Below, in pieces: positions 2,402 to 42,573 of a stretch of 64,000 bases of DNA (the first letter of the stretch is position 1; the number at the start of each line of letters is the position of its first letter). The notes beneath the pieces are model-generated. The model did not search any database. It was not told the DNA's origin and saw only the letters and a program-made list of their open reading frames with translations. The stretch spans positions 8,968 through 72,967 of the IMG/VR virus record IMGVR_UViG_3300037455_000250. One strand, given 5' to 3'. The translations under genes were made by a program, and so were the position numbers. This DNA comes from a virus (lineage: Duplodnaviria > Caudoviricetes).

Positions 2402-3704
2402 GTTACAGATAATCTCAAAGATATTAGAAACAGGAGATTTCTCAATAATTGAGGATAATCTTATAACTGATGATTATTTCAAAGACACAGGATGGGAAGA
2501 TGAGTTTTTATTCATCAAGAATTATTATCAAGAATATGGTACTGTGCCAGATAAATCAACATTCTTACACAAATTCAAAGACAGATTTAAGGGTGAGAAC
2601 CCTTTAGTTGATACTGAAAGAACCAGTAATGAATATCTTGTTGATACAATCCGTGAAGAATATCAGTTTAGAAAGTTAGCACCTGTAGTAGATAAGATTG
2701 CAGACATAGCCAATACTGACGCAAATAAAGCGTGTGAGTATATGTTGCAGGCTATGAAAGATTTGCAACCGAATTATCGTTTGGGTGGTATAGATATTAT
2801 TGCTAATGGTGATAAGAGATTAGAGAATTATAAGGATAGAGTTGAACATCAATCTGATTGGTATTTTTCAAGCGGTTTTCCAGAGTTAGATACTGTTACA
2901 CACGGCATACAAAGAGGGGAAGAATTTATTGTTATTTTTGCCCGTATCAATCAAGGTAAATCTTGGATATTAGAAAAGATGATAACGCACATTTGGTGTC
3001 AAGGGTTTAATGTTGCGTATATATCTCCAGAAATGGGTGATGATAGTATAGGATATAGATTTGATACTTTATTTAAGGGTTATCCTAACAGAAGTTTGAT
3101 GTGGGGTACATCAGAAGTAAATATCACAGAGTATGAGAACCACATTAGTACATTAAAGAATGACCATAAGAATAAATTTATTGTAGCAACTCCAGAAGAT
3201 TTTAATAGAAAAATAACTGTAAGCAAGTTACGCACATTTATTAAACAACATAAGTTAGACGCAATCGCAGTAGACGGCATTAAGTATATGACAGATGAAA
3301 GAGGAAGAAGAAATGATAGTGACGCTACCGCATTAACTAATATTAGTGCCGATTTAATGTCATTATCAGTCGAATTAAAAGTGCCTATTTTAGTTGTTCA
3401 TCAAGCAAACAGACAAGGTGTAATTGATAACGATAGTGAGGGTACTCCTGGTATGCACACAATAAAAGACAGTGACGGTATTGGGGCGTGTGCGTCAAAA
3501 GTATTTTCATTAAGACAAAAAGACGGTGCAGTATCTATTACTCCAGTAAAGCAGAGAAATGGCCCTGTCGGTGACACATTCAAATATCTTTGGAATATAA
3601 ATATCGGTGAGTTTATATACACCGCAGATAATAAAGATTACACACCAGAAGAAAAGAAAGAACGCAGAGAACGCAAAAAGAATGGAGGTAAAGATGTATT
3701 CTAA
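2394..3704 (+). CDS. dnaB: DnaB-like replicative helicase
   Basis: FARINQGKS Walker A, YISPEM, AVDG Walker B, VHQANR, VKQRNG; start could be 2385 or 2394. Confidence 0.85.
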   Translation: MVELQIISKILETGDFSIIEDNLITDDYFKDTGWEDEFLFIKNYYQEYGTVPDKSTFLHKFKDRFKGENPLVDTERTSNEYLVDTIREEYQFRKLAPVVDKIADIANTDANKACEYMLQAMKDLQPNYRLGGIDIIANGDKRLENYKDRVEHQSDWYFSSGFPELDTVTHGIQRGEEFIVIFARINQGKSWILEKMITHIWCQGFNVAYISPEMGDDSIGYRFDTLFKGYPNRSLMWGTSEVNITEYENHISTLKNDHKNKFIVATPEDFNRKITVSKLRTFIKQHKLDAIAVDGIKYMTDERGRRNDSDATALTNISADLMSLSVELKVPILVVHQANRQGVIDNDSEGTPGMHTIKDSDGIGACASKVFSLRQKDGAVSITPVKQRNGPVGDTFKYLWNINIGEFIYTADNKDYTPEEKKERRERKKNGGKDVF

Positions 3705-3849: not shown

Positions 3850-4792
3850 CGCAGAACCAGAAGATATAATCACTGAGTTAAGAGCCCAGTTGGCAAAGAG
3901 CGGCATACAAAAGTTTGCGAAGATATTTGATAGTGGGGATGATTTAATGATTTGTTGCCCATATCATAAAGAAGGCCAAGAGCGTAATCCAAGTGCTGGC
4001 ATTAGAAAATCTGACGGACTATTTCACTGTCTTGCTTGTGGTGAAACACACGCATTAACCGAAATGATTAGTGATTGTTTGGGATATAATAACCCAATAT
4101 TAGGATATAAATGGCTGATACAGAATTTTGCAACAACAGAGGTCAGTTCTCGTGGAAAAATTATTGTTAATTATAGAAGGCTCAATAATGATAATGTGCC
4201 TGATATTAGTTCTCCAAAGATAAGTGAAGAAGAATTGGATAATTACCGATATATACACCCGTATCTGTATGAACGTGGTTTAACAGATGAAATTATAGAA
4301 AAGTTTGATATAGGGTATGACAAAGCGACTGACAGTATCACATTTCCTGTGAGAGATAATAATGGCGATTGTATGTTCGTTGCAAGACGGTCTGTTAAGA
4401 CACATCACTTTGATTTGCCTAAAGGCATAACAAAACCATTATATGGTATGTATGAGTTGACACATACAAAAGGGTTCGGAGTTAAATATCCTACAAAGTT
4501 ATATATCTGTGAAGGAACATTCGATTGTTTAAGATTTTGGTGTAATGATAAACTCGCAGTAGCGGGTTTTGGTTGTTTGTTTAATACATATCAGATAAAG
4601 CAAATACAAGATTTGCCGATTAGAACAGTAGTGATTGCCACAGACAACGATAAAGCAGGCTATGAGGCAAATAATAGATTGCGTAAACTATTAACAAACA
4701 AGGTAATCAAAGAAGTTATATGGCCAGAAGGTCGCAAAGACGCGGGCGAATGTACTGATGAAGAAATACAAAATCTCAAGGAGGTTCTATGA
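3824..4792 (+). CDS. dnaG: DNA primase (CHC2 zinc finger + TOPRIM)
   Basis: CCPYH...FHCLAC; ITFPVRD; CEGTFD; TDNDKAG. Confidence 0.9.
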   Translation: MNIDGTIINAEPEDIITELRAQLAKSGIQKFAKIFDSGDDLMICCPYHKEGQERNPSAGIRKSDGLFHCLACGETHALTEMISDCLGYNNPILGYKWLIQNFATTEVSSRGKIIVNYRRLNNDNVPDISSPKISEEELDNYRYIHPYLYERGLTDEIIEKFDIGYDKATDSITFPVRDNNGDCMFVARRSVKTHHFDLPKGITKPLYGMYELTHTKGFGVKYPTKLYICEGTFDCLRFWCNDKLAVAGFGCLFNTYQIKQIQDLPIRTVVIATDNDKAGYEANNRLRKLLTNKVIKEVIWPEGRKDAGECTDEEIQNLKEVL

Positions 4793-5460
4793 TATACACT
4801 TTTTGGGAAGGGTCAATGTCTGGATACATAAAATTGTGTTTAGATACTTGGCGTCAAGAGTTTACACTTTTGAATTATGACAACCTTAATAACTACACTA
4901 ACTTAGATATAAAGGCGTTACAGAATTATACCATTGCTCAAATATCCGATATTGTTCGTGTGCATATATTAAGAGATAACGGTGGATATTGGGTTGACGC
5001 AGATACTATTATGCTTACTGATTATTTGCCCGAAGAAAATATGATAGGTATGCCATCAGATAGAACTGCACATTGTGGGTATCTTCATTTTGATAAGAAC
5101 GCTACTATGCTAAAAGAGTGGGCAGAAAAGCAAGATATGATTATCAGTTCAGGTAGCACGGGTGAATGGGACTTATTTGCAAACTCTCTTTCTGACCCGC
5201 TTGTTAAGAAGTATGATGAAGTTACCATAAAAGACAGGCAATTATATTTTCCCGAAAGTTATATGTCTATTGAAAATAATCCATATTGTCAATACAGAGA
5301 TTTTTATTTTGATAATCATTATCAAGTATCGGATATAAAGCCGACTGAACTGCTTATGTTACACAATTCTTGGACACCATCTTGGTATAAAGATTTAAGT
5401 GAGATAGAGGTACTAACTAAAACAAGAACAATGTCAAATATATTAAAGGAGGTTTTATGA
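4789..5460 (+). CDS. GT32/capsular-polysaccharide-synthesis-like glycosyltransferase
   Basis: IYTFWEG, CLDTW, SDIVRVHILRDNGGYWVDAD (DXD). Confidence 0.75.
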   Translation: MIYTFWEGSMSGYIKLCLDTWRQEFTLLNYDNLNNYTNLDIKALQNYTIAQISDIVRVHILRDNGGYWVDADTIMLTDYLPEENMIGMPSDRTAHCGYLHFDKNATMLKEWAEKQDMIISSGSTGEWDLFANSLSDPLVKKYDEVTIKDRQLYFPESYMSIENNPYCQYRDFYFDNHYQVSDIKPTELLMLHNSWTPSWYKDLSEIEVLTKTRTMSNILKEVL

Positions 5461-6116
5461 GATACATAATTATGTGTGGTGGCAAGTATCATCAATGGAA
5501 AAAACCGAGACAACTCACACGAATATTTGGTGAAACACTTATTGAGCGTACAACTCGATTATTGAAGATGTGTGGAGTTAGTGGTCACGATATTTGGGTT
5601 AGTACATCTAATGCAGAAATGGTGCGTTCAATATTGCAAGAAGTGCCACATACACACATTGTGGTACACAATAATCCTTTTGAAGTGATTAGTCCGAGTA
5701 TTATTACTGGATATTGGTGTGACTGTTTTTATCCAATGACAGAGCCGTGTACTTATATAATGGGTGATGTTGTATTTTCAGAAAAAGCCATAGAAACGAT
5801 TGTTAAGACAGAAACTACCGATATTGAGTTTTTTGCGTCAGCGCCGCCATTTACTAAACAGTATTCAAAAGAGTGGGCAGAGCCTTTTGCTTTTAAGGTA
5901 TTTGACCAAGAACACTTGAAGTCTGCACAACTCAAAACAAAACAATTATGGGATGAACACAAATTTAATCGACACCCTATTGCGTGGGAGTTTTGGCAAG
6001 TAGTGAAAGATACACCACTAAATCAGATAGATTATACTAATTACACAGTTATTAATGATTATACCTGTGACATAGATAAGCCAGAAGATATTAAATACTT
6101 TGAAGGAGTAATGTAA
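5457..6116 (+). CDS. GT-A-fold nucleotidyltransferase-like protein (LicC/MobA-like)
   Basis: IIMCGG...KPRQL...GETLIERT N-terminus; IMGDVVF; C-terminal DIDKPED. Confidence 0.7.
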   Translation: MRYIIMCGGKYHQWKKPRQLTRIFGETLIERTTRLLKMCGVSGHDIWVSTSNAEMVRSILQEVPHTHIVVHNNPFEVISPSIITGYWCDCFYPMTEPCTYIMGDVVFSEKAIETIVKTETTDIEFFASAPPFTKQYSKEWAEPFAFKVFDQEHLKSAQLKTKQLWDEHKFNRHPIAWEFWQVVKDTPLNQIDYTNYTVINDYTCDIDKPEDIKYFEGVM

Positions 6117-10144: not shown

Positions 10145-11350
10145 ATGACAAGACGAATAGCGATAATTAATCCTGTTGGAGTAGAAGGCGGTGGCGCAAC
10201 AACTTTATGTGTGCAATATGCAGGATTAGGTATAGATTGTTGGATGAAAAATACCGTAGATTACGCAAACTCAATCGTAGCGACAATACCAAATATCAAG
10301 CCATATTCAACAGATAATGATTTGTTAGATATTGCAACGAAGTATGATAGGTTATTATTTGTAAATATGTGGTTTGGGCATACTATGCCCGATAATGTAA
10401 TAGATAATGTAATTAAGTTACGAAAAAATTATCCTAATTTAGAGATTTGCTATATACATTGTTGTAGAGGATTAGGTGATTTATATACTTTATTACCAGT
10501 TTGTCAGCAACATAATTTTATGTTTGATTATATTTTTTCTTTACATCCTCAAATTACTTCTTTTCCATATTGTAAATCAGTGTTTATGAATATTAATGCG
10601 TGTATTTTGCCTGATTATTCACCATTAAGTGTTAATGAGAGAAATAATATTGTATTCACATCTGGTAGAGTAGAGGGGTTTAAAGGAGTAGTTAAATATT
10701 TTAATTCTATTGATGATGATTTTTTGGCCTCAACAGGAAAGTTTACGTATATACACGAAGGTGCAAAATATTCACATCATAAGAATAATGATGGAATAAG
10801 TTGTCCACCTCAAATGCTTTCAATATTTGACACAACAACGTCTCCGAAATCACTTAAACCACAGTATGTATTACGTGATTATGGGCAAGAGCCTTTGTGT
10901 GATAAATTTAATATTTATCCGTCTTATGATATGCGTTTTATACGTGATAGATGGAAACATTATTTTGCTGGTATTTGTTGTGTTCTCGGAACAACAAGCG
11001 GATATATGGTGGAGCAGACATTATTTGGCACAGAATATAAAATCAAGGATAAGCGAGAGAGAACATTAATAGATAAGCGTACAAATGATTGGGGAGATAC
11101 CTTAGAGTACGCAGACATTGAAAAAATGTCATTTGGTGTACCAGTATTTTTTTCTCGTAAGTTCTCGCAGATAATTGGGTTTACAGATGAGAGGTTAATA
11201 TACAATTCGTTTTCAGAGATACCGGAAAAGGTAAAGTTATTACACACGTATTATGATGATGTGCGAGAGGCACAGTATACGTGGTTACACGAAAAGTTAC
11301 AGAATGTAAATGCAACGATTTTAGAAAAGTTTACAGGAGATATAAACTAA
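10145..11350 (+). CDS. T4 AGT-like GT-B DNA glycosyltransferase
   Basis: 401 aa; GVEGGGAT, SGRVEGFKG and TLEYADIEKMSFGVPVFF resemble T4 alpha-glucosyltransferase motifs as recalled from memory. Confidence 0.7.
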   Translation: MTRRIAIINPVGVEGGGATTLCVQYAGLGIDCWMKNTVDYANSIVATIPNIKPYSTDNDLLDIATKYDRLLFVNMWFGHTMPDNVIDNVIKLRKNYPNLEICYIHCCRGLGDLYTLLPVCQQHNFMFDYIFSLHPQITSFPYCKSVFMNINACILPDYSPLSVNERNNIVFTSGRVEGFKGVVKYFNSIDDDFLASTGKFTYIHEGAKYSHHKNNDGISCPPQMLSIFDTTTSPKSLKPQYVLRDYGQEPLCDKFNIYPSYDMRFIRDRWKHYFAGICCVLGTTSGYMVEQTLFGTEYKIKDKRERTLIDKRTNDWGDTLEYADIEKMSFGVPVFFSRKFSQIIGFTDERLIYNSFSEIPEKVKLLHTYYDDVREAQYTWLHEKLQNVNATILEKFTGDIN

Positions 11351-12201
11351 TGCGTAATGATTTTGCCGTTTTCATTATAACTCACGGACGTCCTGATAAA
11401 CAACTTACATATGATACCTTGCGTAGATGTGGATATAATGGTAAAATTTATCTTGTAGTAGATAATACGGACAATACAATACAACAACACATAGATAAAT
11501 ATGGCGCAGAAAATATCATTGTGTTCGATAAGAACCATTATATAAATTCAGACAGATTTGATAATGGAACAGAGGGTGTTTTTGCGTGTGCCGTTTATGC
11601 AAGACGAGCAGTGGAAGATATAGCAAAAAGTATGAAGTTGGCATACTTTTGTATGATAGATGATGATGTTACCGATTTATGTCTAAGGATTCCATTAGAA
11701 AACAAAGTACGCAGATTAAAAATATATAATATGGATGAAATATTTAATGCGTATTTAGAGTTGTTAGAGATAAAACAAATTAGTTGTCTTGGTTTTGGCT
11801 ATCAAACTCTTTATTTTTCTGGTATGAAGTATTTTACAACAGATTTTAGGCCATTACCTTTTAGACTATTCATAAGAAAAACATCAGTAGATATTGATTG
11901 GTCTAATTGGTATGGTGAAGATGAGATTGCAGGATATCAAAGCAATATAAAAGGTCTATTATGGACTGCTATACCATTAGTTATGGTGACAACATCAGAA
12001 GAGGCTACAGGCGCTATGCAAACAACATATGAACAAACAACCTCTTTTTTACGTTCAATAGTTGAGTTAAGGTATGTTCCATCACAAGTAGTAATTGCGA
12101 CTTGTACGAGAGGTAAAAAGAAAGGAACACAACATCTATATAGAAGAAATCAAGATTGGTTTCCTAAAATCATAAGTAGCACGTATAAAAAGGAGATATG
12201 A
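11350..12201 (+). CDS. TAGT/GREB1-like GT-A glycosyltransferase 1
   Basis: FAVFIITHGRP, YLVVD, YARR, MIDDD, GEDE; start moved to ATG 11350. Confidence 0.8.
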   Translation: MRNDFAVFIITHGRPDKQLTYDTLRRCGYNGKIYLVVDNTDNTIQQHIDKYGAENIIVFDKNHYINSDRFDNGTEGVFACAVYARRAVEDIAKSMKLAYFCMIDDDVTDLCLRIPLENKVRRLKIYNMDEIFNAYLELLEIKQISCLGFGYQTLYFSGMKYFTTDFRPLPFRLFIRKTSVDIDWSNWYGEDEIAGYQSNIKGLLWTAIPLVMVTTSEEATGAMQTTYEQTTSFLRSIVELRYVPSQVVIATCTRGKKKGTQHLYRRNQDWFPKIISSTYKKEI

Positions 12202-12599
12202 ATATGCAGTTAGAGTTTTTTAACACACCAGAGGTAGATAGCAACAACAAGTACACAAAAAAGATTGCAATTCCACAGTATGTGCCTTCTGAGGTTGCAC
12301 CCACATTAAACGAACTCTGTAATTTATCAAAATATTCCGAATTGTTACGAGATATAAAATCTTCAAATGTAACAGAGGAAGAAAAAGAGTTTTTAATACG
12401 TGCGGCTACACGACACATTGTATTTAATTATGCGAAAATAGCGGATTATTATGCACACGCAACACCTGAAATGCAAAAACTTATGGAGAAATCTGCGTTA
12501 GTTATTATTGATTATGAGGATGCAATAGCAAATGGTTATGTGAAATTAAGTAGCACGATAAAGTCAATCATAGAGGAAACAAACAAAAATGAGAACTGA
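12198..12599 (+). CDS. small helical protein associated with TAGT-like genes
   Basis: coupled between the two TAGT-like genes; FNYAKIADYYAH...LVIIDYEDAIANG; N-terminal QLEFF. Confidence 0.65.
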   Translation: MNMQLEFFNTPEVDSNNKYTKKIAIPQYVPSEVAPTLNELCNLSKYSELLRDIKSSNVTEEEKEFLIRAATRHIVFNYAKIADYYAHATPEMQKLMEKSALVIIDYEDAIANGYVKLSSTIKSIIEETNKNEN

Positions 12600-13455
12600 T
12601 TTTGCAGTATTCGTTTTAAGTCACGGCAGAGCAAAAAGTCTTAAAACAATTAATTCTTTATTGTCGAGAGGGTATACTGGTAGATGGTATATTATTGTTG
12701 ATGATGAGGATGACCAAATATCGTTGTATCAACAAAATTTTGGGGAAGACCATATAATTGTGTTTGATAAGAAAGAAGTCGGCAAAACATTCGATATAAT
12801 GGATAATTTTGAAGGTCGACAAGTGCCGACTTTTGCTCGAAATGCGGTGTACGATATAGCAGATAATCTTGGGTTAAAATACTTTTATGAGGCAGATGAT
12901 GATTTAGTATGCTTTAGAGCAAGATTATTAGACAGTGAGGGTGTATTACGTACAGTCTATTTTAATGATATGGATAAAGTGTTTTCTGCATATCTTGATT
13001 ATATGGATAATGCAGAACGTATAGATGTATTAGCGTTTGGACAAACTGGAGATTTAATCGGCGGAAGTGGCTCAAAACTTTTTATAAAAGGATATATTAG
13101 AAAAGCCATGCAGGGATTTATTGTACGTGTGTCGAGTAGAATAACATATGTAGGAAGATTTAATGATGATGTTAATGCGTATGTTGACGCGGGTAAAATA
13201 GGTTATTTGTTCATTACATATAAAGATGTGATAATGGACACAATAGAAACACAGAAAAGCAAAGGCGGTATAACGGAAAATTATAAGAAATATGGTACCT
13301 ATGTTAAGTCTTTTTATTCTGTAATATTAGACCCGAGTTGTGTATTTATAAGCACAATGGGCTTTGGTAATTATAGAATACATCATCAGATAGATTGGGA
13401 AAAAGCGGTGCCTAAAATAATAAGTAGCGATTTTAAGAAAGGAGAGGCAGAATGA
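12589..13455 (+). CDS. TAGT/GREB1-like GT-A glycosyltransferase 2
   Basis: FAVFVLSHGRA, YIIVDD, FARN, EADDD, GRFNDDV, QKSKGG, YVKSFYS, HHQIDW. Confidence 0.85.
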   Translation: MRTDFAVFVLSHGRAKSLKTINSLLSRGYTGRWYIIVDDEDDQISLYQQNFGEDHIIVFDKKEVGKTFDIMDNFEGRQVPTFARNAVYDIADNLGLKYFYEADDDLVCFRARLLDSEGVLRTVYFNDMDKVFSAYLDYMDNAERIDVLAFGQTGDLIGGSGSKLFIKGYIRKAMQGFIVRVSSRITYVGRFNDDVNAYVDAGKIGYLFITYKDVIMDTIETQKSKGGITENYKKYGTYVKSFYSVILDPSCVFISTMGFGNYRIHHQIDWEKAVPKIISSDFKKGEAE

Positions 13456-14192
13456 AAGTAGGATTGTTCCCTATGGTAGCAGATGTATTACACGCCGGTC
13501 ATATACTCGCTATCAAAGAGGCAAAAGCAAACTGTGATTACCTTATAGTTGCGTTATATTGTAAACCTAAGAGAAAACCAAATATTGTGCAGAGTATCTT
13601 TGAGAGATATACTCAACTATCCGCAATCAAATTTGTTGATGAAGTGATGCCTTACGAAGATGAAGAGGATGTTTATAGGGTGTTGCTCTCTATTAAATTT
13701 GATGTATATTTTCTCGGCGCAGATTACAAGAATAAACGATTTGAAGGACAAGACCTCGTTGAAAATTTAGGCAAAGAAATTTATTACTTATCCCGTAATC
13801 ACACAATGAGTAGTTCCAAATTAAAATCAGATATTATTAAAAATGGCGCAAAACAAGAAACGAAAGATAAAGTTATTGCGGTTGATTTTGATGGGTGTAT
13901 TTGTAGTATGAATTATCCTGATATAGGAGAGCCTAATTGGGATGTAATCAATGCTCTTAAACAAGAAAAAGAGAACGGCGCAAAAATCATTTTATGGTCT
14001 TGTCGTGCTGATGAATATTTACGTGCGGCGATAGAGGCGTGTGATGAATGGGGATTACAGTTTGACGCAGTAAATGAAAACGTACCAGAAAGATTAGTTA
14101 AGTATGGATATTCCGATTCTCGAAAGGTTAGTGCTGACGAGTATTGGGACGATTTAGCAAAAGTTATTAAATTTAAAGGAGGACAGAATTAA
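13452..14192 (+). CDS. TagD-like cytidylyltransferase fused to a HAD-family phosphatase domain
   Basis: DVLHAGH (HxGH), FERY, GADY, SSSKLK; second domain VIAVDFDG...LWSCRA...DEYWDD. Confidence 0.85.
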   Translation: MKVGLFPMVADVLHAGHILAIKEAKANCDYLIVALYCKPKRKPNIVQSIFERYTQLSAIKFVDEVMPYEDEEDVYRVLLSIKFDVYFLGADYKNKRFEGQDLVENLGKEIYYLSRNHTMSSSKLKSDIIKNGAKQETKDKVIAVDFDGCICSMNYPDIGEPNWDVINALKQEKENGAKIILWSCRADEYLRAAIEACDEWGLQFDAVNENVPERLVKYGYSDSRKVSADEYWDDLAKVIKFKGGQN

Positions 14193-22546: not shown

Positions 22547-22788
22547 TGACAGGATTAATTGTTGCAGTAACAATATTAGGAACATCATTTGTAGCATATG
22601 CAATATATAGTTTTATCCGTATGTATCAAATGACAAGAAATATGGACGCAATCGCACAGTGTTTTTTGACAATCGTGACACATCCAGAAGATGTGGATAT
22701 TATTGAAGATTACTCAACTAATGGCACAACATCAAAGTGTATGAAGTCTGATTGGAATTTTCCTAATACGGAGGGCGGTTTTCAATGA
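22546..22788 (+). CDS. small membrane protein
   Basis: N-terminal TM helix. Confidence 0.65.
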   Translation: MTGLIVAVTILGTSFVAYAIYSFIRMYQMTRNMDAIAQCFLTIVTHPEDVDIIEDYSTNGTTSKCMKSDWNFPNTEGGFQ

Positions 22789-23804
22789 GCGTATCACTTG
22801 CAATAAAATATAGACCCCAAAAGTTTGACGAGGTGGTAGAGCAATCTGCCACCAAGGTCATTCTCAAACAACAATTAGATAGCGGAGATATTAAGAACGC
22901 ATATTTATTCTGTGGTGGTGCAGGTACAGGCAAAACAACTTGTGCCAGAATATTTGCGAATGAAATTAATAAGGGTAAGGGTCTTCCCATTGAGTTAGAC
23001 GCCGCAAGTAATAACTCCGTAGATGATGTAAGAGAGATTATTCAGCAAGCCAAAACAAACGCATTAGATAGTGAGTATAAAGTGTTTATTATGGATGAAG
23101 TCCACGCACTATCAAACAATGCGTGGCAGGCTATGTTGAAGATACTCGAAGAACCACCAAAAAAGTCCATATTCATTATGTGTACGACAGACCCACAGAA
23201 GATACCAAAGACAATTCTTTCAAGAGTGCAGAGATACAATTTCCAACGAATTAGTCATAAGGCGATTGTTGAGAGATTATGGTATGTGGTTAAGTGTGAG
23301 TTTGAGAACGGTTACCAAATTCGAGCCACAGATGAGGCTCTTGATTTTATCGCAAAGCAGGCACAGGGCGGAATGAGGGACGCTTTGACAATGCTTGATA
23401 AGTGTCTCGCATATTCAGAAGATTTAACCATTGATAGTGTTGTTAAGGCATTAGGAATGTCTGATTATTCTTATATGATTGACTTGTTATATGCGGTTGT
23501 AATCGTAGATTGTAAAGGTCAGATAGATGTTATCAATAAAGTATATATGTCTGGTATTGACTTAAAGCAGTTTATTAAGGACTTTACAGTCTTTGTGTTA
23601 GATTGTTGCAAGTATGATTTACAGGTAGATTTTAAGCATTGTTCTTGTCCTGATACACCAGACATTTGTGATGTGTTTGAGAGTGCTTGTAAAGATATAG
23701 ATATTATTAACTTGTTACGCAGTCTTATTAGATTGCAAACAGATATTAAATGGGACACTAATCCGAAGAGCCGTCTGGAAGCCTGGTGCATAACTGGTGA
23801 ATAA
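22785..23804 (+). CDS. dnaX: DNA polymerase III gamma/tau-like clamp loader ATPase
   Basis: LAIKYRPQKF, GGAGTGKTT, ELDAASNNSVDD, MDEVHAL, LKILEEPP, ILSRVQ, GGMRDA. Confidence 0.95.
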   Translation: MSVSLAIKYRPQKFDEVVEQSATKVILKQQLDSGDIKNAYLFCGGAGTGKTTCARIFANEINKGKGLPIELDAASNNSVDDVREIIQQAKTNALDSEYKVFIMDEVHALSNNAWQAMLKILEEPPKKSIFIMCTTDPQKIPKTILSRVQRYNFQRISHKAIVERLWYVVKCEFENGYQIRATDEALDFIAKQAQGGMRDALTMLDKCLAYSEDLTIDSVVKALGMSDYSYMIDLLYAVVIVDCKGQIDVINKVYMSGIDLKQFIKDFTVFVLDCCKYDLQVDFKHCSCPDTPDICDVFESACKDIDIINLLRSLIRLQTDIKWDTNPKSRLEAWCITGE

Positions 23805-23860: not shown

Positions 23861-24535
23861 ATGAAATCATACAAAGTATATATTCACACATTTCCCAATA
23901 ATAAGCGTTATGTTGGCATTACAAGCAGTAGCACATTACACCGTTGGGGTGACCATGGACAAGGTTATGCAAATCAAAAATTGATGTGGAGAGCAATTCA
24001 AAAATACGGTTGGGATAATATCCAACACATTGTTATTGCAGACAATCTTACTAAAAAACAGGCGTGTGCATTAGAGATACAGTTAATTGCTCTCTTTCAA
24101 TCAAATAAACCAAGATATGGCTATAATGTTTCAGACGGAGGAAATATTCCTGCGCCTCGTTCAGAAGAAACACAAAGACGCATTACTGAAAAATTGCGTG
24201 GTAGAAAACTCTCGGAAGAAACAAAAAAGAAAATATCAAAAAGCCATCTTGGAGAATTAAACGCATTTTATGGTAAAAAGCACACGGAAGAAACAATAAC
24301 TAAATTAAGAATTGCACATACGGGTAAAAAAGCAACAGAGCGTACAAAACAAAAGTTAAGCGAACAACGGAAAGGAAAACATAAGTCGCAAGAGCATAAA
24401 AACAAATTGAGTAAGTCTTTGCTTGGACATTCTGTATCTGAGGAAACTCGATTGAAAATGTCATTGGCTAAAAAAGGACGAAAATTGTCAGAAGAAACTC
24501 GCAGAAAAATGAGCGAGGCACATAAACGAAAATAA
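23861..24535 (+). mobile_element. free-standing GIY-YIG homing endonuclease with NUMOD3-like repeats
   Basis: YKVYIH...KRYVGIT...RW, GYNVSDGG, repeated SEET(K/R)xKIS; inserted at the dnaX 3' end. Confidence 0.9.
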
Positions 24536-24537
24536 TA

Positions 24538-24573
24538 TCAAGAATAGAGGCTTGGTGTATTGCAAAGGAGTAA
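24538..24573 (+). pseudogene. stranded original 3' end of dnaX
   Basis: encodes SRIEAWCIAKE*, against the current dnaX end SRLEAWCITGE*. Confidence 0.8.
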
Positions 24574-24575
24574 CT

Positions 24576-25391
24576 ATGATTGGACAGACAGTATTAAGAG
24601 AGCGTATTAACGGTCAGATAGAGCGTAAGAAATTTCCGAGATTTTCAATCTTAATAGGTGAAAAGGGAAGTGGTAAGAAAACACTTGCCAAAGAGATTGC
24701 AAAGAATTTGGGAATAAGTGCCGTAATGACAGAAACCACAGTTGATAACATTCGACAGGTAATAGACGATTGTTATAAGATTATTGAGCCGTTGGTGTTT
24801 ATATTACCAGACTGTGACAATATGTCCTCTGCGGCGGCTAATGCTCTTTTGAAAGTAACAGAGGAACCTCCGCAAAGAGCCTACTTTATCCTTACCTGTG
24901 AAAGTATTGACAATCTTCTACCAACACTTAAAAGTCGTGGCGTAACTTATATGCTTGAACCTTATTCGTATGAGGATAAATGTGATTATCTTGATAATCT
25001 TGAAATGTCAGATGAAGATATGGAGTTTATTCTTGGAGTATCTTCAACTATAGGCGATGTTAAAACTATGTCAGAAATGAACATCACGGAGTTTAAAGAT
25101 TATGTTGAGTTGGTAATAGATAATATCGCAGAGGTATCTGTCAGCAACGCATTTAAGATAGGTGATAAGATTGCTCTTAAAGATGAGGAAGACAAATATA
25201 ATCTTAAACTTTTCTGGAAAGCGTTTAACGCAGTATGTGTGGACAGAATGAAACAAAGCGATTATCCTGTTATGTATTCAAACGCAATCGCAATTACTGG
25301 TGATTTTGCTCAACAGTTACATATAAGAGGTATAAACAAGCAAATGCTATTTGATGGTTGGCTACTTAAAATCAGAGAGGCTTGGGTATGA
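24576..25391 (+). CDS. holB: clamp loader delta-prime-like subunit
   Basis: GEKGSGKKTLA, VDNIR, AANALLKVTEEPP, LLPTLKSRG. Confidence 0.9.
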   Translation: MIGQTVLRERINGQIERKKFPRFSILIGEKGSGKKTLAKEIAKNLGISAVMTETTVDNIRQVIDDCYKIIEPLVFILPDCDNMSSAAANALLKVTEEPPQRAYFILTCESIDNLLPTLKSRGVTYMLEPYSYEDKCDYLDNLEMSDEDMEFILGVSSTIGDVKTMSEMNITEFKDYVELVIDNIAEVSVSNAFKIGDKIALKDEEDKYNLKLFWKAFNAVCVDRMKQSDYPVMYSNAIAITGDFAQQLHIRGINKQMLFDGWLLKIREAWV

Positions 25392-29173: not shown

Positions 29174-29562
29174 TGCTTAAAGTAGTAGGAATGGGTAGTG
29201 TATGTTGTGCATTTTCTGAAATGTCTACAACAGAACTTTTCCAAATGAACGCTCCATTTAATTTTTATGTTGAGGCTCCCTTATATTGGTGGCTCGATTT
29301 TGATTACACAAAATTTGGTTTTGAATTAGGCGATTTCACTGAGGTTGATAAACTGAATATGTCTGTATCTACAATGGTCAAAGGTTGTGCGATATTGACC
29401 TATCAAGAAATTGTTACGATATGCCAAGAATACTGTAATGGCGTATATAAATATACTCACAAATCTTATGAATGGAATAATGAGCGTGAGTGGAACGATT
29501 TTTGTGAAACACTGTTAGATGTTAAAGGTGTAAGAGATTTAGTTGACGAGGAGGTATTTTAA
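29173..29562 (+). CDS. hypothetical protein
   Basis: AGGAGG RBS, coupled. Confidence 0.7.
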   Translation: MLKVVGMGSVCCAFSEMSTTELFQMNAPFNFYVEAPLYWWLDFDYTKFGFELGDFTEVDKLNMSVSTMVKGCAILTYQEIVTICQEYCNGVYKYTHKSYEWNNEREWNDFCETLLDVKGVRDLVDEEVF

Positions 29563-34762: not shown

Positions 34763-35041
34763 TTATGCTACTTCCTGTAAGTTTAATAATGGTTCCATTT
34801 CTGCGGCGTCATATATTTCATATCCGCCTTCTTTCCATTCAATGTATGCCTCAATATCTCCGTCGTAATAACTTGCCAGATATCCGCTCTCGACAAGTGT
34901 AGATATAATATTTTTGCACACTATCGACCAATCATCTGGGCTCGTATCAATCGAAACTCTTCCAATAACTCTCCAATCATTTACTGTCCAACCCTCACAG
35001 TCAGACCATACATCTAACCATACAACCTCGTACTCTCGCAT
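34763..35041 (-). CDS. hypothetical early protein
   Basis: LDVWSDCEGWTVND motif; AAGGAG RBS. Confidence 0.7.
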   Translation of the reverse strand: MREYEVVWLDVWSDCEGWTVNDWRVIGRVSIDTSPDDWSIVCKNIISTLVESGYLASYYDGDIEAYIEWKEGGYEIYDAAEMEPLLNLQEVA

Positions 35042-37953: not shown

Positions 37954-38127
37954 ATTATTCTTCCTCGCTTTCACATATAATTTCCACAATTTCTATTCCA
38001 TCGTAGAGTAGGGAGAATGTCTCCCGCACATCATCTTCATCATATCCATCAATAAGGGTTTGACCTAACAGTTCAGGATGGGCGTAATCCGTGTGTATCA
38101 CGGTGTAAAGTTTCTTAATTCCCATAT

Positions 38128-39350: not shown

Positions 39351-39560
39351 TTACCTCACTTTCGTAATAATTCCATCTTCGAGTGTTACACTTGCGTACC
39401 ATCTATGCGGTTCGGGGTAGTGCGGTCCCTCCACACAAACTGTTCCATTACTCGGCTCGTTCCCACCGAACGGTCCTGGCTGATAAACTCTCACCTTCTG
39501 TCCATTGGCAACGGCCTCCTTGAGTGCTTTCTTGGTCTTGAAGTTGATTGTGGTATACAT
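39351..39560 (-). CDS. conserved small phage protein
   Basis: NFKTKKALKEAV...EGPHYPEPHRWYA. Confidence 0.75.
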   Translation of the reverse strand: MYTTINFKTKKALKEAVANGQKVRVYQPGPFGGNEPSNGTVCVEGPHYPEPHRWYASVTLEDGIITKVR

Positions 39561-40022: not shown

Positions 40023-40106
40023 ATTCTTTCTCCTTTCACTTGACTGGTGTAGATTTAGTTTTTATTCAATCAAGCACACAGACTATTCGCACGGAAGGGT
40101 ATCTAT

Positions 40107-40301
40107 TTAGAACTCGTTGGGATCGGTGTCGTATTCCCAATCATATGTTCCGTGATAGCGGTTCTGCTCTTCAAGGAACTCCAATCTTTCTTCTTCTTCA
40201 ATGTGGTTGTAGGCGTCTTCAATGTCGATAGCGGATAGCGGACAACGCATTTCATCTAATCTTCTTTGGCACTCTGCCAGAACTTTCTCAATTTTTGTCA
40301 T
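40107..40301 (-). CDS. hypothetical early protein
   Basis: GGAGG RBS. Confidence 0.65.
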   Translation of the reverse strand: MTKIEKVLAECQRRLDEMRCPLSAIDIEDAYNHIEEEERLEFLEEQNRYHGTYDWEYDTDPNEF

Positions 40302-40438
40302 AGGTCACTTTCCTCCGAATGTATGTATCGTGTTAAACCAGCGGACAAATTCTGCCCCGTATAATTCTCTGCAAATTCTAAAACCGAACTTTTCGTACTG
40401 GCTTGCGTAGTATTTAGCCATATCTTTAGTCCTCCTTA

Positions 40439-40627
40439 TTAGTAATTAAGTGATAGGATTGCTCTCATATAGTCTTCCGCACAGTGGATTCCCATATCCA
40501 AATCAAATCTTCCTTCGGCTTTGTACTTTTCATATTCTTGTGTCATTTCTTGATAACCCTCATCGGTTATGATTGCGGTACAGGATGCGCCCTGTCTATA
40601 AGAATAATATTTAATCTTGTGGTCCAT
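40439..40627 (-). CDS. hypothetical early protein
   Basis: AAGGGGG RBS. Confidence 0.65.
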   Translation of the reverse strand: MDHKIKYYSYRQGASCTAIITDEGYQEMTQEYEKYKAEGRFDLDMGIHCAEDYMRAILSLNY

Positions 40628-40679
40628 TTTAATTTCCCCCTTTCTTAGGTGCGAATAATCTGTATTCTTGATTGACTTC

Positions 40680-41293
40680 AGGCGTGTTTTGCGGACACTT
40701 ACTAATGCGTGTTATTTATTTATGCTATGAACTCTGTAGATGCGAGTTCGTTTCGGCTTGTGTTATGCGGGAGCATTTTCTTTTGTAATCTGACGGAAGA
40801 CGATTTCGGGCTTGTCTTTCTTCTTGGGAGCGGCTGCAGGTTTCTTGCTTTCGGCTTTCTTATCTGCGGGCTTCTTTTCGGCGGGTTTCTTCTTGTCAGG
40901 ACGTTCCTTGACTGTGGCAAACTGGACATCTTTCAGGTTGTCTTTCAGGAACTTCTTGATAGCGTCAACTGCGGTCTCTTTTTCGCCAACTTTGATAAGT
41001 TTCATATACTCGTAATCGTCGGGATTCTTCTCGAGGTCGGGCTTTAACTTCACGCCCTCAAGGTTCTTAAAAGTGTCATTCCAGTTTTTGTGCAGGTAAA
41101 CGTGTGCTGTGGACGAATTTGCCTTCTTATATGCGAAAACAATTTGCTTGTCCTCAGTATAGAAACGGAATGTGGTGTTCTGTGCAAAAATCTTAATTTT
41201 CATGGTAAGTTCCTCCTTATGAACTAAAATATTATTGTGTTTGGGTGGGTGCATAAATAATACACGCATAGTAAGTATCTCCAAAACACGCCT
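40680..41293. repeat. about 45-bp imperfect inverted repeat pair (40680-40725 / 41251-41293)
   Basis: AGGCGTGTTTTG..ACTTACTA(A)TGCGTGT..TTTATGC in opposite orientations; brackets gene 40763-41203. Confidence 0.85.
40763..41203 (-). CDS. first early gene: Lys-rich protein with histone-H1-like PAEKK tail
   Basis: AAGGAGG RBS before MKIKIF; KKPAEKKPADKKAESKKPAAAPKKK. Confidence 0.75.
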   Translation of the reverse strand: MKIKIFAQNTTFRFYTEDKQIVFAYKKANSSTAHVYLHKNWNDTFKNLEGVKLKPDLEKNPDDYEYMKLIKVGEKETAVDAIKKFLKDNLKDVQFATVKERPDKKKPAEKKPADKKAESKKPAAAPKKKDKPEIVFRQITKENAPA

Positions 41294-41563
41294 GTTTTTG
41301 CGGTAGAAGAACCGGACGCCATCTCGTTTTACGCGATACTCTCGTATCTCCCATTCAGAGCCTCTCCTGGTTGAGGGTTATATGCTATTTTCTTCTGGAC
41401 TTTATTGGGGGTGCGAGCCCTACTGAGGTGCCATACTAAGATAGTCAGTTACTCCGAGCGACGTATATTCAGTTGTACTTTTTATTATTCTTATCTTCTT
41501 GCTTACATCACTTCTTTCTGTATCTGTATTTCAATCTTGCTTTTGTGCTTGATTGATGGCTTC

Positions 41564-41607
41564 AGTCTAACACTGCAAAAATTACGTTTCTGTTAATAAA
41601 ATATGAA
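41564..41607 (-). promoter_or_regulatory. leftward early promoter (TTCATA-5-TTAACA-21-TAGACT)
   Basis: same phased-box layout as 10067, 26622 and 41864. Confidence 0.5.
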
Positions 41608-42030
41608 TTTTTAACGTTTAACGATAAATTTTCACGATTTTTGTTAATCATTTATGAACAAAAAATTAAGTCAAGAATTTTTTAACAATTTTCTTTGACA
41701 TTTATTGTTTCCCAATAAAAATTTGTTGTTTTACGATATGAATATTTATGCAATTTGATTTATAATATTGTATTCTTTTATGCAATGTTTTATCGTTTTT
41801 CGATAAATAAATGAATATTCACTGTATAATGTCAAATAAAATTTATATGTAAATTTTTTGTAAACTTTATCAGACTAAAGAAAATATTAACAAACTGTTA
41901 AAATCAATCTCTTTTGTGTAAACGAATATGAATTATTTGTGTCATATATTATGGAATTGTAAAAAGTATCAACCACCGTGTTTTTATATCATGTTTTTGT
42001 TGTGCTATTTGTCAAGTATATTTACTTTAC
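41580..42030. other. very AT-rich non-coding block between the divergent early and late regions
   Basis: no ORF; A/T tracts; several TGTAAA/TGTTAA boxes. Confidence 0.7.
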
Positions 42031-42212
42031 AGGGCTAATTCGAGTACCAAGCGGGATCTCCTTTGCTCCAGACCGTTTCTTATATTAGCATAGTCTGGCC
42101 CTCTCCTACGCGAGGGACACGCAGCCAGAGCGTTCCAGCCCTATATTGACACGTGAGCAAAACAGAAAACAGATGGCGGGGTGGCGTGGCTGAGCTACGG
42201 AGAATTACACGT

Positions 42213-42400
42213 GGACTGTTGTAGATAAAGTATGCGATAACGCTGGATATACGTAACCATACATAAAAGTAAGCTGAATGACCTGCTGGATAAACGGAAT
42301 GAGGACGTGTTTCTGGACGCGTCCTAGGACAGGAAAAACAAAAATAAAATAGATTTTCAAAGTGGTTGTCTGATTTATGTGGGACTGTTGTAGATAAAGT
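42213..42400 (+). repeat. 19-bp direct repeat GGACTGTTGTAGATAAAGT (42213-42231, 42382-42400)
   Basis: exact copies 169 bp apart, just upstream of the late promoter. Confidence 0.8.
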
Positions 42401-42410
42401 GTTCAAAGTA

Positions 42411-42439
42411 TTGACTTATATATAGGCAGATGTTATTTT
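42411..42439 (+). promoter_or_regulatory. promoter of the packaging/structural operon
   Basis: TTGACT-17-TATTTT with extended TG. Confidence 0.6.
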
Positions 42440-42573
42440 AAGTGTATAAACAAGATATTCATTGTATCGGGGGTCTCTGAAATGGTCCTGAGGACGAGTA
42501 AGAACGACGGGTGATTAACAGTTTATCTTATTTATATTAGAAAGACAGACAATTAAATATGCGAGGTGTATGT

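Follow-up and report, generated by a model that had tools for sequence, protein, structure and literature searches.

Comparative analysis shows that two inverted repeats at the head of a tailed-phage early operon are, as judged from their complementarity and its variation among relatives, the arms of consecutive long-range helices in the sense (minus-strand) early transcript. Along this polycistronic RNA, the first early cistron would lie within helix A and the three that follow it within helix B. We regard it as very probable that an RNA helix is under selection here, and the sequence comparisons described below show pairing, rather than sequence, to be what selection appears to preserve.

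The source, a gut or rumen phage, is a 72,967-bp IMG/VR record rated complete by CheckV, with a GC content of approximately 37%. The window, by which we mean the whole 64,000-nt stretch that was analysed, corresponds to bases 8968–72967 of this record. Its replication and DNA-modification module (Table 1) encodes DnaB, primase, a family-A polymerase, clamp and clamp loader, as well as RecA-like and RecU-like proteins and two TET-associated glycosyltransferases, and a plus-strand packaging and structural module lies beyond the large non-coding region. From this gene layout, helices A and B lie on the first 1.25 kb of a leftward early operon. The closest cultured relatives according to TerL are Blautia and Clostridium phages. 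These relatives, together with strong AGGAGG-type ribosome-binding sites, suggest that the host belongs to the Clostridia, but with TerL identities of only 45–49% they offer no model system. At the nucleotide level, the early region matched nothing among GenBank phages, ten early proteins had no match in Pfam or PHROGs, and no Rfam family was matched between positions 38000 and 44000.

The 146-aa product of the first early gene, one of the proteins for which Pfam and PHROG gave no match, has a Lys/Pro/Ala-rich tail behind a beta-rich domain that carries a K-D-EKHPD-YEY motif. Its AF2 model has a mean pLDDT of 77, and fold searches yielded nothing convincing (best Foldseek E = 0.26, best VIA-align Z = 4.9). 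A word-based protein search recovered no proteins other than the 146-aa and 81-aa ones of the window itself. Relatives of the 146-aa protein were detected only by a full HMMER search, which found eight remote homologues; their contigs were retrieved and the proteins aligned.

In a self-BLAST of the 64 kb, no long-range inverted repeats other than pairs A and B exceeded the threshold. Each arm pattern occurs in the window solely at its own two sites, with none expected from shuffled sequences, and the arms of A and B are unrelated to each other in sequence. All arms are wholly intergenic or untranslated, and the genes lie between them (arm separation 525 and 546 nt in the two pairs). The 5′ arm of helix A stops 47 nt upstream of the ATG at 41203 and thereby leaves the AAGGAGG ribosome-binding site unpaired. 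Pair A has an ungapped core of 26 nt (88%); its gapped alignment of 47 columns contains 41 Watson–Crick pairs, three bulged bases and three mismatched positions, which on the minus-strand RNA are one G-U, one A-C and one transversion. The resulting helix of approximately 42 pairs has a calculated duplex energy of −58.8 kcal/mol in the sense and −55.0 kcal/mol in the antisense orientation. In pair B 27 of 32 positions match, and the 26–29 pairs of the helix give −38.3 (sense) versus −31.6 kcal/mol (antisense). Both repeats had been recognized in the original prediction and are real: the extent of pair A could be refined to that given in Table 1, and the 24/27 core described for pair B agrees with ours. 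The 5-nt spacing reported between the pairs, on the other hand, is actually 3 nt. The statement that mismatches turn into G-U pairs on the coding strand holds: two of those in B are G-U on the minus-strand RNA only, and A has one G-U on each strand. A weaker inverted repeat (40585–40612 with 41227–41254) reaches only 71% and was taken as chance, and no local hairpin exists at the junction 40676–40678. Both the MFE and the centroid fold of the 1.3-kb sense RNA contain helices A and B. Since either strand forms both helices in silico, however, folding alone cannot tell the strands apart.

Table 1. Positions of the helices, enclosed genes and neighbouring elements in the window, and of helices in two related loci (coordinates of the respective locus).
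Feature	Position	Strand	Remarks
Replication and DNA-modification module	1–30.6 kb	plus	
Approximately 30 small genes	31–41.2 kb	minus	mostly orphans
Motif copy AUCUACA-N4-UC	40042..40054	minus	immediately 3′ of helix B, before the next gene's ribosome-binding site
Helix B, 3′ arm	40066..40097	minus	starts 9 nt past stop codon
Three small early genes (62, 38, 64 aa)	40107..40627	minus	inside helix B; Shine-Dalgarno sites
ORFs within helix B	40439–40627, 40305–40421, 40107–40301	minus	strong Shine-Dalgarno sites
Helix B, 5′ arm	40644..40675	minus	complementary to 40066–40097; orthologous to L122:730–756
Linker between helices A and B (3 nt)	40676..40678	minus	read off the sequence
Helix A, 3′ arm	40679..40725	minus	starts 37 nt past stop codon
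Motif copy AUCUACA-N4-UC	40729..40741	minus	in loop A, immediately 5′ of 3′ arm
First early gene (146 aa)	40763..41203	minus	sole gene inside helix A; strong Shine-Dalgarno
Helix A, 5′ arm	41251..41294	minus	complementary to 40679–40725
Non-coding region (1.26 kb)	41295–42558		
Leader and candidate early-promoter region	41295..42000	minus	AT-rich, upstream of helix A
Partial third copy of helix B 5′ arm (13 nt), UCAAUCAAGCACA	41544..41556	minus	in leader
Two helices of L122	172–205/694–727, 730–756/1330–1356		
Chained repeats of L007	63–90/462–489, 490–514/832–856, 859–890/1386–1417		sequences unrelated to A or B

Twelve relatives, the window included, were compared at the orthologous first gene by calculating the RNA duplex between its 5′ and 3′ untranslated flanks. 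Six of them (the window, L122, L124, L125, L007 and L196) form duplexes of −51 to −61 kcal/mol, compared with shuffle means of −25 to −38 kcal/mol (sd approximately 4); the window itself reaches −61 versus −28 kcal/mol in shuffles. The arm sequences of these six are unrelated or heavily diverged. The TerL-anchored locus L007 (84% TerL identity) carries three chained repeats at the corresponding place, L122 has two helices, L124 and L125 one each, and L196 a chain of four. Across the stems, the geometry is nevertheless constrained: the 5′ arm ends 16–58 nt upstream of the start codon with the ribosome-binding site unpaired, the 3′ arm begins 8–38 nt past the stop codon, the enclosed loops measure 300–850 nt, and consecutive helices in the relatives are separated by −1 to 7 nt. 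The chained geometry is alike in the unrelated phages L086 and L069. In the other six relatives (L120, L039, L193, L194, L195 and L123) the first-gene helix is missing and the energies lie at shuffle level, so the feature must be dispensable or replaceable. In two of these the ends concerned bear local hairpins instead, in L120 a GC hairpin right after the stop codon and in L039 hairpins in the 5′UTR, which fits a function of structure at the gene ends.

Exact-pattern scans, in which arm A was sought in the viral collection and arm B in both the viral and the metagenome collection, returned single chance matches that lacked a second arm. Inverted-repeat matches in L020, L022–L024 and L033 turned out to be palindromic operator-promoter repeats and thus a different thing, and a multi-copy repeat family containing ATCTACA in L022–L024 also differs, the antisense duplex being the more stable one there.

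Covariation in relatives, which the original prediction had named as a check, was found between the window and L122. This relative is orthologous over the whole region, sharing the first gene, both the 62-aa and the 64-aa gene and, downstream, the 81-aa gene; its helix B likewise holds the orthologues of the 62-aa and 64-aa genes, with a different gene in the middle. In helix B, the outer nine and the inner eight positions are identical in both phages and the central ten covary. Both partners of a pair have changed in a compensatory manner four times in this centre (C-G to U-A, A-U to C-G, G-C to A-U and U-A to C-G); in addition, a single mismatch has become a pair again, another position has lost its pairing, and two G-U pairs persist as G-U. 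The helices A of the two phages share short cores only, but are fully paired in both. The helix B covariation involves two sequences and alone is not a strong statistical test; combined with the six helices that occupy one position with different sequences, it shows complementarity to be what is preserved.

Whether pairing takes place in RNA or DNA can be judged from the mismatches, because a transition between the arms appears as G-U on one of the two strands and as A-C on the other. Twenty stems were picked purely by strand-symmetric DNA identity, 13 of them from this phage family and seven from L086, L069 and L081, phages unrelated to it that came up in a scan of the loci surrounding a widespread 69-aa gene. 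Read on the coding strand, the mismatches of these stems comprise 29 G-U versus 7 A-C (binomial p = 1.6e-4), and in all 19 informative stems the sense duplex is more stable than the antisense duplex (p = 2e-6). The energy calculation has no built-in bias, as the single perfect duplex gives equal energies on both strands. Base-composition skews predict a G-U:A-C ratio of approximately 1.1, and mutational asymmetry at compositional equilibrium should not yield 4:1. The G-U excess and the consistently greater sense stability thus point to RNA helices in the early mRNA and imply that both arms reside on one transcript, its promoters being candidates only. Taken together with the varied arm sequences and the compensatory changes, these data lend strong support to the preference for RNA duplexes over DNA sites that had been expressed in the original prediction. 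G-T is the best-tolerated mismatch in single-stranded DNA as well, and the strand bias is therefore no strict exclusion of folding by the coding DNA strand. For this to happen in a dsDNA phage, however, a stretch of 300–850 nt would have to become single-stranded.

Bacterial RNase III cleaves dsRNA of at least approximately two helical turns with little sequence specificity. No RNase III gene was found in the complete phage genome, and the enzyme acting on the helices would hence be that of the host. According to the mechanism we propose, it would cut the 25–45-bp helices on both strands, as at the 16S/23S stalks, to release cistron units with 5′ and 3′ ends still paired in a stub duplex. These paired ends might shield the units both from 3′ exonucleases and from the 5′-end-dependent RNase J or RNase E; in Bacillota, they would be expected to resist RNase J1 and 3′ exonucleases. 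As an explanation of the whole, the cutting of sense-RNA helices by RNase III into end-paired cistron units is the one we cautiously favour, and on RNase III processing with end protection as its purpose our judgement is evenly balanced. Circularisation of the modules finds no support.

It is also conceivable, though in our view rather unlikely, that the helices are real but remain uncut and serve a closed-loop or insulating role, or that they are cut in order to destabilise immediate-early messages and switch them off quickly. Uncut helices could bring stop and start codons into apposition for ribosome recycling, isolate the folding of individual cistrons or block exonucleases. All the evidence for RNA pairing fits these roles equally well, as do the tight geometry, with start and stop codons 8–58 nt from the helix, and the restriction of the helices to promoter-proximal genes; the hairpins of L120 and L039, too, suggest that end structure matters. 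What speaks against uncut helices is established knowledge, according to which any host possessing RNase III should cleave near-perfect duplexes of 25–45 bp. A stabilising and a destabilising outcome of such cleavage are not distinguished by the present evidence.

Considerably less probable is that the arms are strand-specific ssDNA hairpins marking attC-like recombination cassettes, which are gained and lost among phages. The patchy presence among close relatives and the variable gene content within the helices would agree with such cassettes, and the tolerance of G-T in DNA hairpins makes them compatible with the strand bias. Like the cassettes of integrons, the phage units are gene-sized, bounded by self-complementary folds and provided with gene-specific cores. 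An attC site, however, is a local imperfect palindrome downstream of a gene and, besides bearing conserved R and L boxes, depends on an integrase. Among the 13 stems of the family, the outer ends have neither the GTTRRRY/RYYYAAC core nor any other core or conserved triplet in common, and the phage genome is devoid of an integrase or other site-specific recombinase. With arms 300–850 nt apart, an entire gene would furthermore have to become single-stranded. Finally, the orthologous helix B has stayed in place while its centre covaried, which indicates vertical maintenance and not cassette exchange, and searches of viral and metagenome collections revealed no cassette in another genomic context.

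DNA inversion, put forward as the alternative in the original prediction, is disfavoured. In this scenario, to which we assign very little credence, the repeats would be invertons or substrates of homologous recombination that flip the cassettes relative to the early promoter. A segment flanked by inverted repeats is the basic anatomy of an invertible element, and the repeats have in common with invertons that 20–45 bp flank a few hundred bp; in addition, the phage encodes RecA-like and RecU-like proteins. Yet the complete 72,967-bp genome contains neither a serine (PF00239) nor a tyrosine (PF00589) recombinase, and because the sequence is private to each pair, one invertase could not serve all of them. 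Unlike in invertons, the cassettes are coding and promoterless, so that a flip would amount to silencing only, and neither the coding-strand G-U bias nor the compensatory changes are expected at DNA sites. Gene order and orientation are also unchanged in the one other assembly of the phage. A MITE or mobile cassette was rejected as well, since the arm sequences occur only at their own pair, have no flanking target-site duplication and are without copies in the viral and metagenome collections. Inversion switches, integron-like and MITE-like elements thus each fail in a defining feature, as judged by recombinase, core and copy evidence. That the repeats are functionless, neutral relics of inverted duplication or template switching would accord with the rapid turnover of intergenic DNA in phage early regions and with their lack in half of the relatives, but is hardly credible given that the layout recurs independently at one place with different sequences and 0–7-nt linkers, also in unrelated phages, and that neither compensatory changes nor a 29:7 strand-specific mismatch bias would be expected.

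Helices cut by RNase III, as we prefer to read them, have two precedents, both of which had been invoked in the original prediction. Its comparison to rRNA operons stands with regard to topology. In the RNase III stalks of rRNA, the flanks likewise pair over hundreds to thousands of nt to give a helix of 20 bp or more, serial helices are found on one polycistronic transcript, and pairing is conserved while the sequence drifts. The phage units differ in being small protein cistrons with loops of 300–850 nt and in that only about half of the close relatives have the helices; neither boxA nor another antitermination signal could be demonstrated for them. The likeness to T7 is restricted to function. 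Processing of T7 early RNA yields discrete, stabilised mRNAs, and the early RNase III sites are, reportedly after Dunn and Studier, R0.3, R0.5, R1, R1.1 and R1.3. In both cases a double-stranded element is located at each cistron boundary of a phage early polycistronic RNA, but the T7 sites are local hairpins of approximately 50–60 nt with an internal loop, situated between genes, whereas the phage helix is formed by two half-sites across a gene and the ends of its cut product would stay paired. The phage helices therefore belong to neither system, resembling the rRNA stalks in topology and the T7 sites in function.

Small variable early ORFs of unknown function with a flanking regulatory element in a fast-evolving region are also known from the PeSL cassettes of T4-type phages, in which direct repeats comprising a conserved early promoter and a local stem-loop mediate recombination (PMC2839356, PMC4122927). 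The flanks described here differ from PeSL in that they are inverted, gene-specific and conserved in complementarity only. In the full-text literature, which was covered incompletely, we found no paper on gene-enclosing long-range helices in phage early mRNAs, and this absence is accordingly weak evidence of novelty. The early-gene helices are probably an undescribed way of processing and stabilising early phage messages.

A broader proposal, which we put forward tentatively and rate somewhat below even, is that many unrelated tailed phages express their immediate-early genes as self-contained panhandle mRNA modules. Each cistron or small set of cistrons would sit within a leader-trailer helix of its own, the helices following one another head to tail as in rRNA operons, and RNase III of the host would excise messages with mutually protecting ends. 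If true, the helices would be gained, lost and replaced by hairpins rapidly while their geometry is kept, and would constitute a general, undescribed layer of early expression. Early genes decide the success of an infection, and the making of stable, discrete messages from them is known in detail for few model phages such as T7. Gene-enclosing helices of rRNA-like layout, recurring across phages that are not related, would offer a new and general rule by which to interpret early operons. They could then serve as a sequence-only marker of immediate-early genes in uncultured phages and would account for long intergenic complementarity overlooked by annotation. A possible use is as compact insulator and stabiliser parts in synthetic operons.

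Upstream of helix A, a promoter scan of the minus strand identified sigma-70-like candidate sites at 42015, 41853 and 41674. Alignment of the leader across relatives revealed no conserved structure, only a single 18-nt element that it has in common with L125. The Firmicutes-type boxA pattern is no commoner than in shuffled sequence, although this may not be the boxA of the host. A shared TCAATCAA motif was discarded, as it is not general across the family, and the direct repeats D1 and D4 of the early region are ribosome-binding sites. The leader's partial third copy of the 5′ arm of helix B would be able to form a perfect duplex with the 3′ arm of B at its outer end. Lastly, the intergenic motif AUCUACA-N4-UC is present in 10 copies versus 1.2 expected. 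Its placement in loop A, immediately before the 3′ arm, recurs in L122, L125, L196 and L007, and its placement just 3′ of helix B is likewise found in L122.

The sequence GA-N4-TGTAGAY occurs 10 times in the window against 1.2 copies expected, with a concentration between positions 34892 and 42395 and the copy at 29367 falling outside that span. As nine of the 10 copies lie on the plus strand, the early sense RNA reads AUCUACA-N4-UC, and a ribosome-binding site usually follows 8–25 nt 3' of the motif. In the window and in the related phage loci L122, L125, L196, L007, L039, and L120, the motif is often located directly 5' of the 3' arm of a gene-enclosing helix or right behind the last helix. 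Two GA-N4-TGTAGAY copies are also found upstream of the rightward late promoter. Possible roles for this motif are as a promoter element, as a processing site, or in protein binding.

Repeats of other types were detected in relatives. More distant relatives (L022/L024 and L023; 68% identity in TerL) carry a four-copy repeat family with two forward and two inverted members, whose first arm starts with ATCTACA. In contrast to the unique helices, this family is multi-copy and forms a more stable duplex as antisense than as sense RNA; it probably represents a different kind of element from the helices that enclose genes. Furthermore, the perfect palindromes TTTTGAAAAAATTTTCAAAA and TTGTGCAAATTGCACAA recur in the early regions of relatives directly upstream of TTGACA boxes, and together with these they look like repeated operator-promoter units.

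In the leader upstream of helix A, the pairing arms around the first early gene, the outer portion of the helix B 5' arm recurs as a third, 13-nt copy; helix B surrounds the next three small early genes. This copy, situated approximately 250 nt upstream of helix A, is perfectly complementary to the end of the helix B 3' arm, and judged from this complementarity their pairing could enclose both cassettes. A comparable additional arm copy (14 nt) exists in L086, an unrelated phage with chained helices. The leader copy may offer an alternative pairing or may be an evolutionary trace. The window and L125 also have in common an 18-nt leader element, CAACCAGGAGAGGCNCTG, which precedes the first helix by approximately 60 nt. 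In the window, this element provides the ribosome-binding site of a 40-codon ORF (41232–41354) that crosses the helix A 5' arm; the counterpart in L125 comprises only five codons, and the encoded peptide is therefore not conserved. Iteron-like copies of TTTAACGATAAA, to which repeats in relatives (L039:1977–2216) are related, are candidate operator sites or a candidate replication origin.

Coordinates of repeats, leader elements, and selected genes (window positions unless a locus is named)
Feature	Position	Strand	Remark
GA-N4-TGTAGAY	29367, 34892, 36472, 37389, 38407, 39104, 40042, 40729, 42214, 42383	plus (9/10)	
Four-copy repeat family (first arm starting with ATCTACA)	L022/L024:2845-2867, 4285-4316, 5277-5308, 5508-5530; L023:3706-3738, 5074-5106, 5287-5328		
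Perfect palindromes	L020:27-46/707-726; L022:1795-1814, 2471-2490, 3415-3432; L033:3453-3471/4424-4442		
Helix B 5' arm, third copy	41544-41556	minus	
TTTAACGATAAA, inverted copies	41610-41628/41789-41807		AT-rich core of divergent intergenic region (41560-41960)
CAACCAGGAGAGGCNCTG	41356-41373; L125 about 505-525	minus (window)	
Caps_synth-like glycosyltransferase	4789-5460		
NTP-transferase	5457-6116		
401-aa gene	10145-11350		no assignment; within putative modification cluster
TET-associated glycosyltransferases (two)	11281-12201, 12589-13455		
Cytidylyltransferase-like gene	13452-14192		
GIY-YIG/NUMOD3 homing endonuclease	23861-24535		

The first early protein (40763–41203) belongs to a small uncharacterized family (alignment A4, with remote homologs). 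Its beta-rich domain spans approximately 100 aa and contains a K-D-EKHPD-YEY motif; the tail behind this domain is variable and rich in Lys, Pro, and Ala. Fold comparison of the protein's AF2 model (mean pLDDT 77) yielded no convincing match; a weak resemblance to double-wing DNA-binding folds was far short of significance. A 69-aa early protein (MYTTINFKTKKALKEAV..., 39351–39560) matched no Pfam or PHROG family, and at least 132 viral contigs, whose environments and genome sizes are very diverse, encode relatives of it (50–84% identity). Elsewhere in the window, the gene cluster at 4789–6116 and 10145–14192, made up of the tabulated glycosyltransferase, NTP-transferase, cytidylyltransferase-like, and 401-aa genes, suggests that the phage DNA is hypermodified, and a homing-endonuclease gene is interposed between both clamp-loader genes (22785–23804 and 24552–25391).
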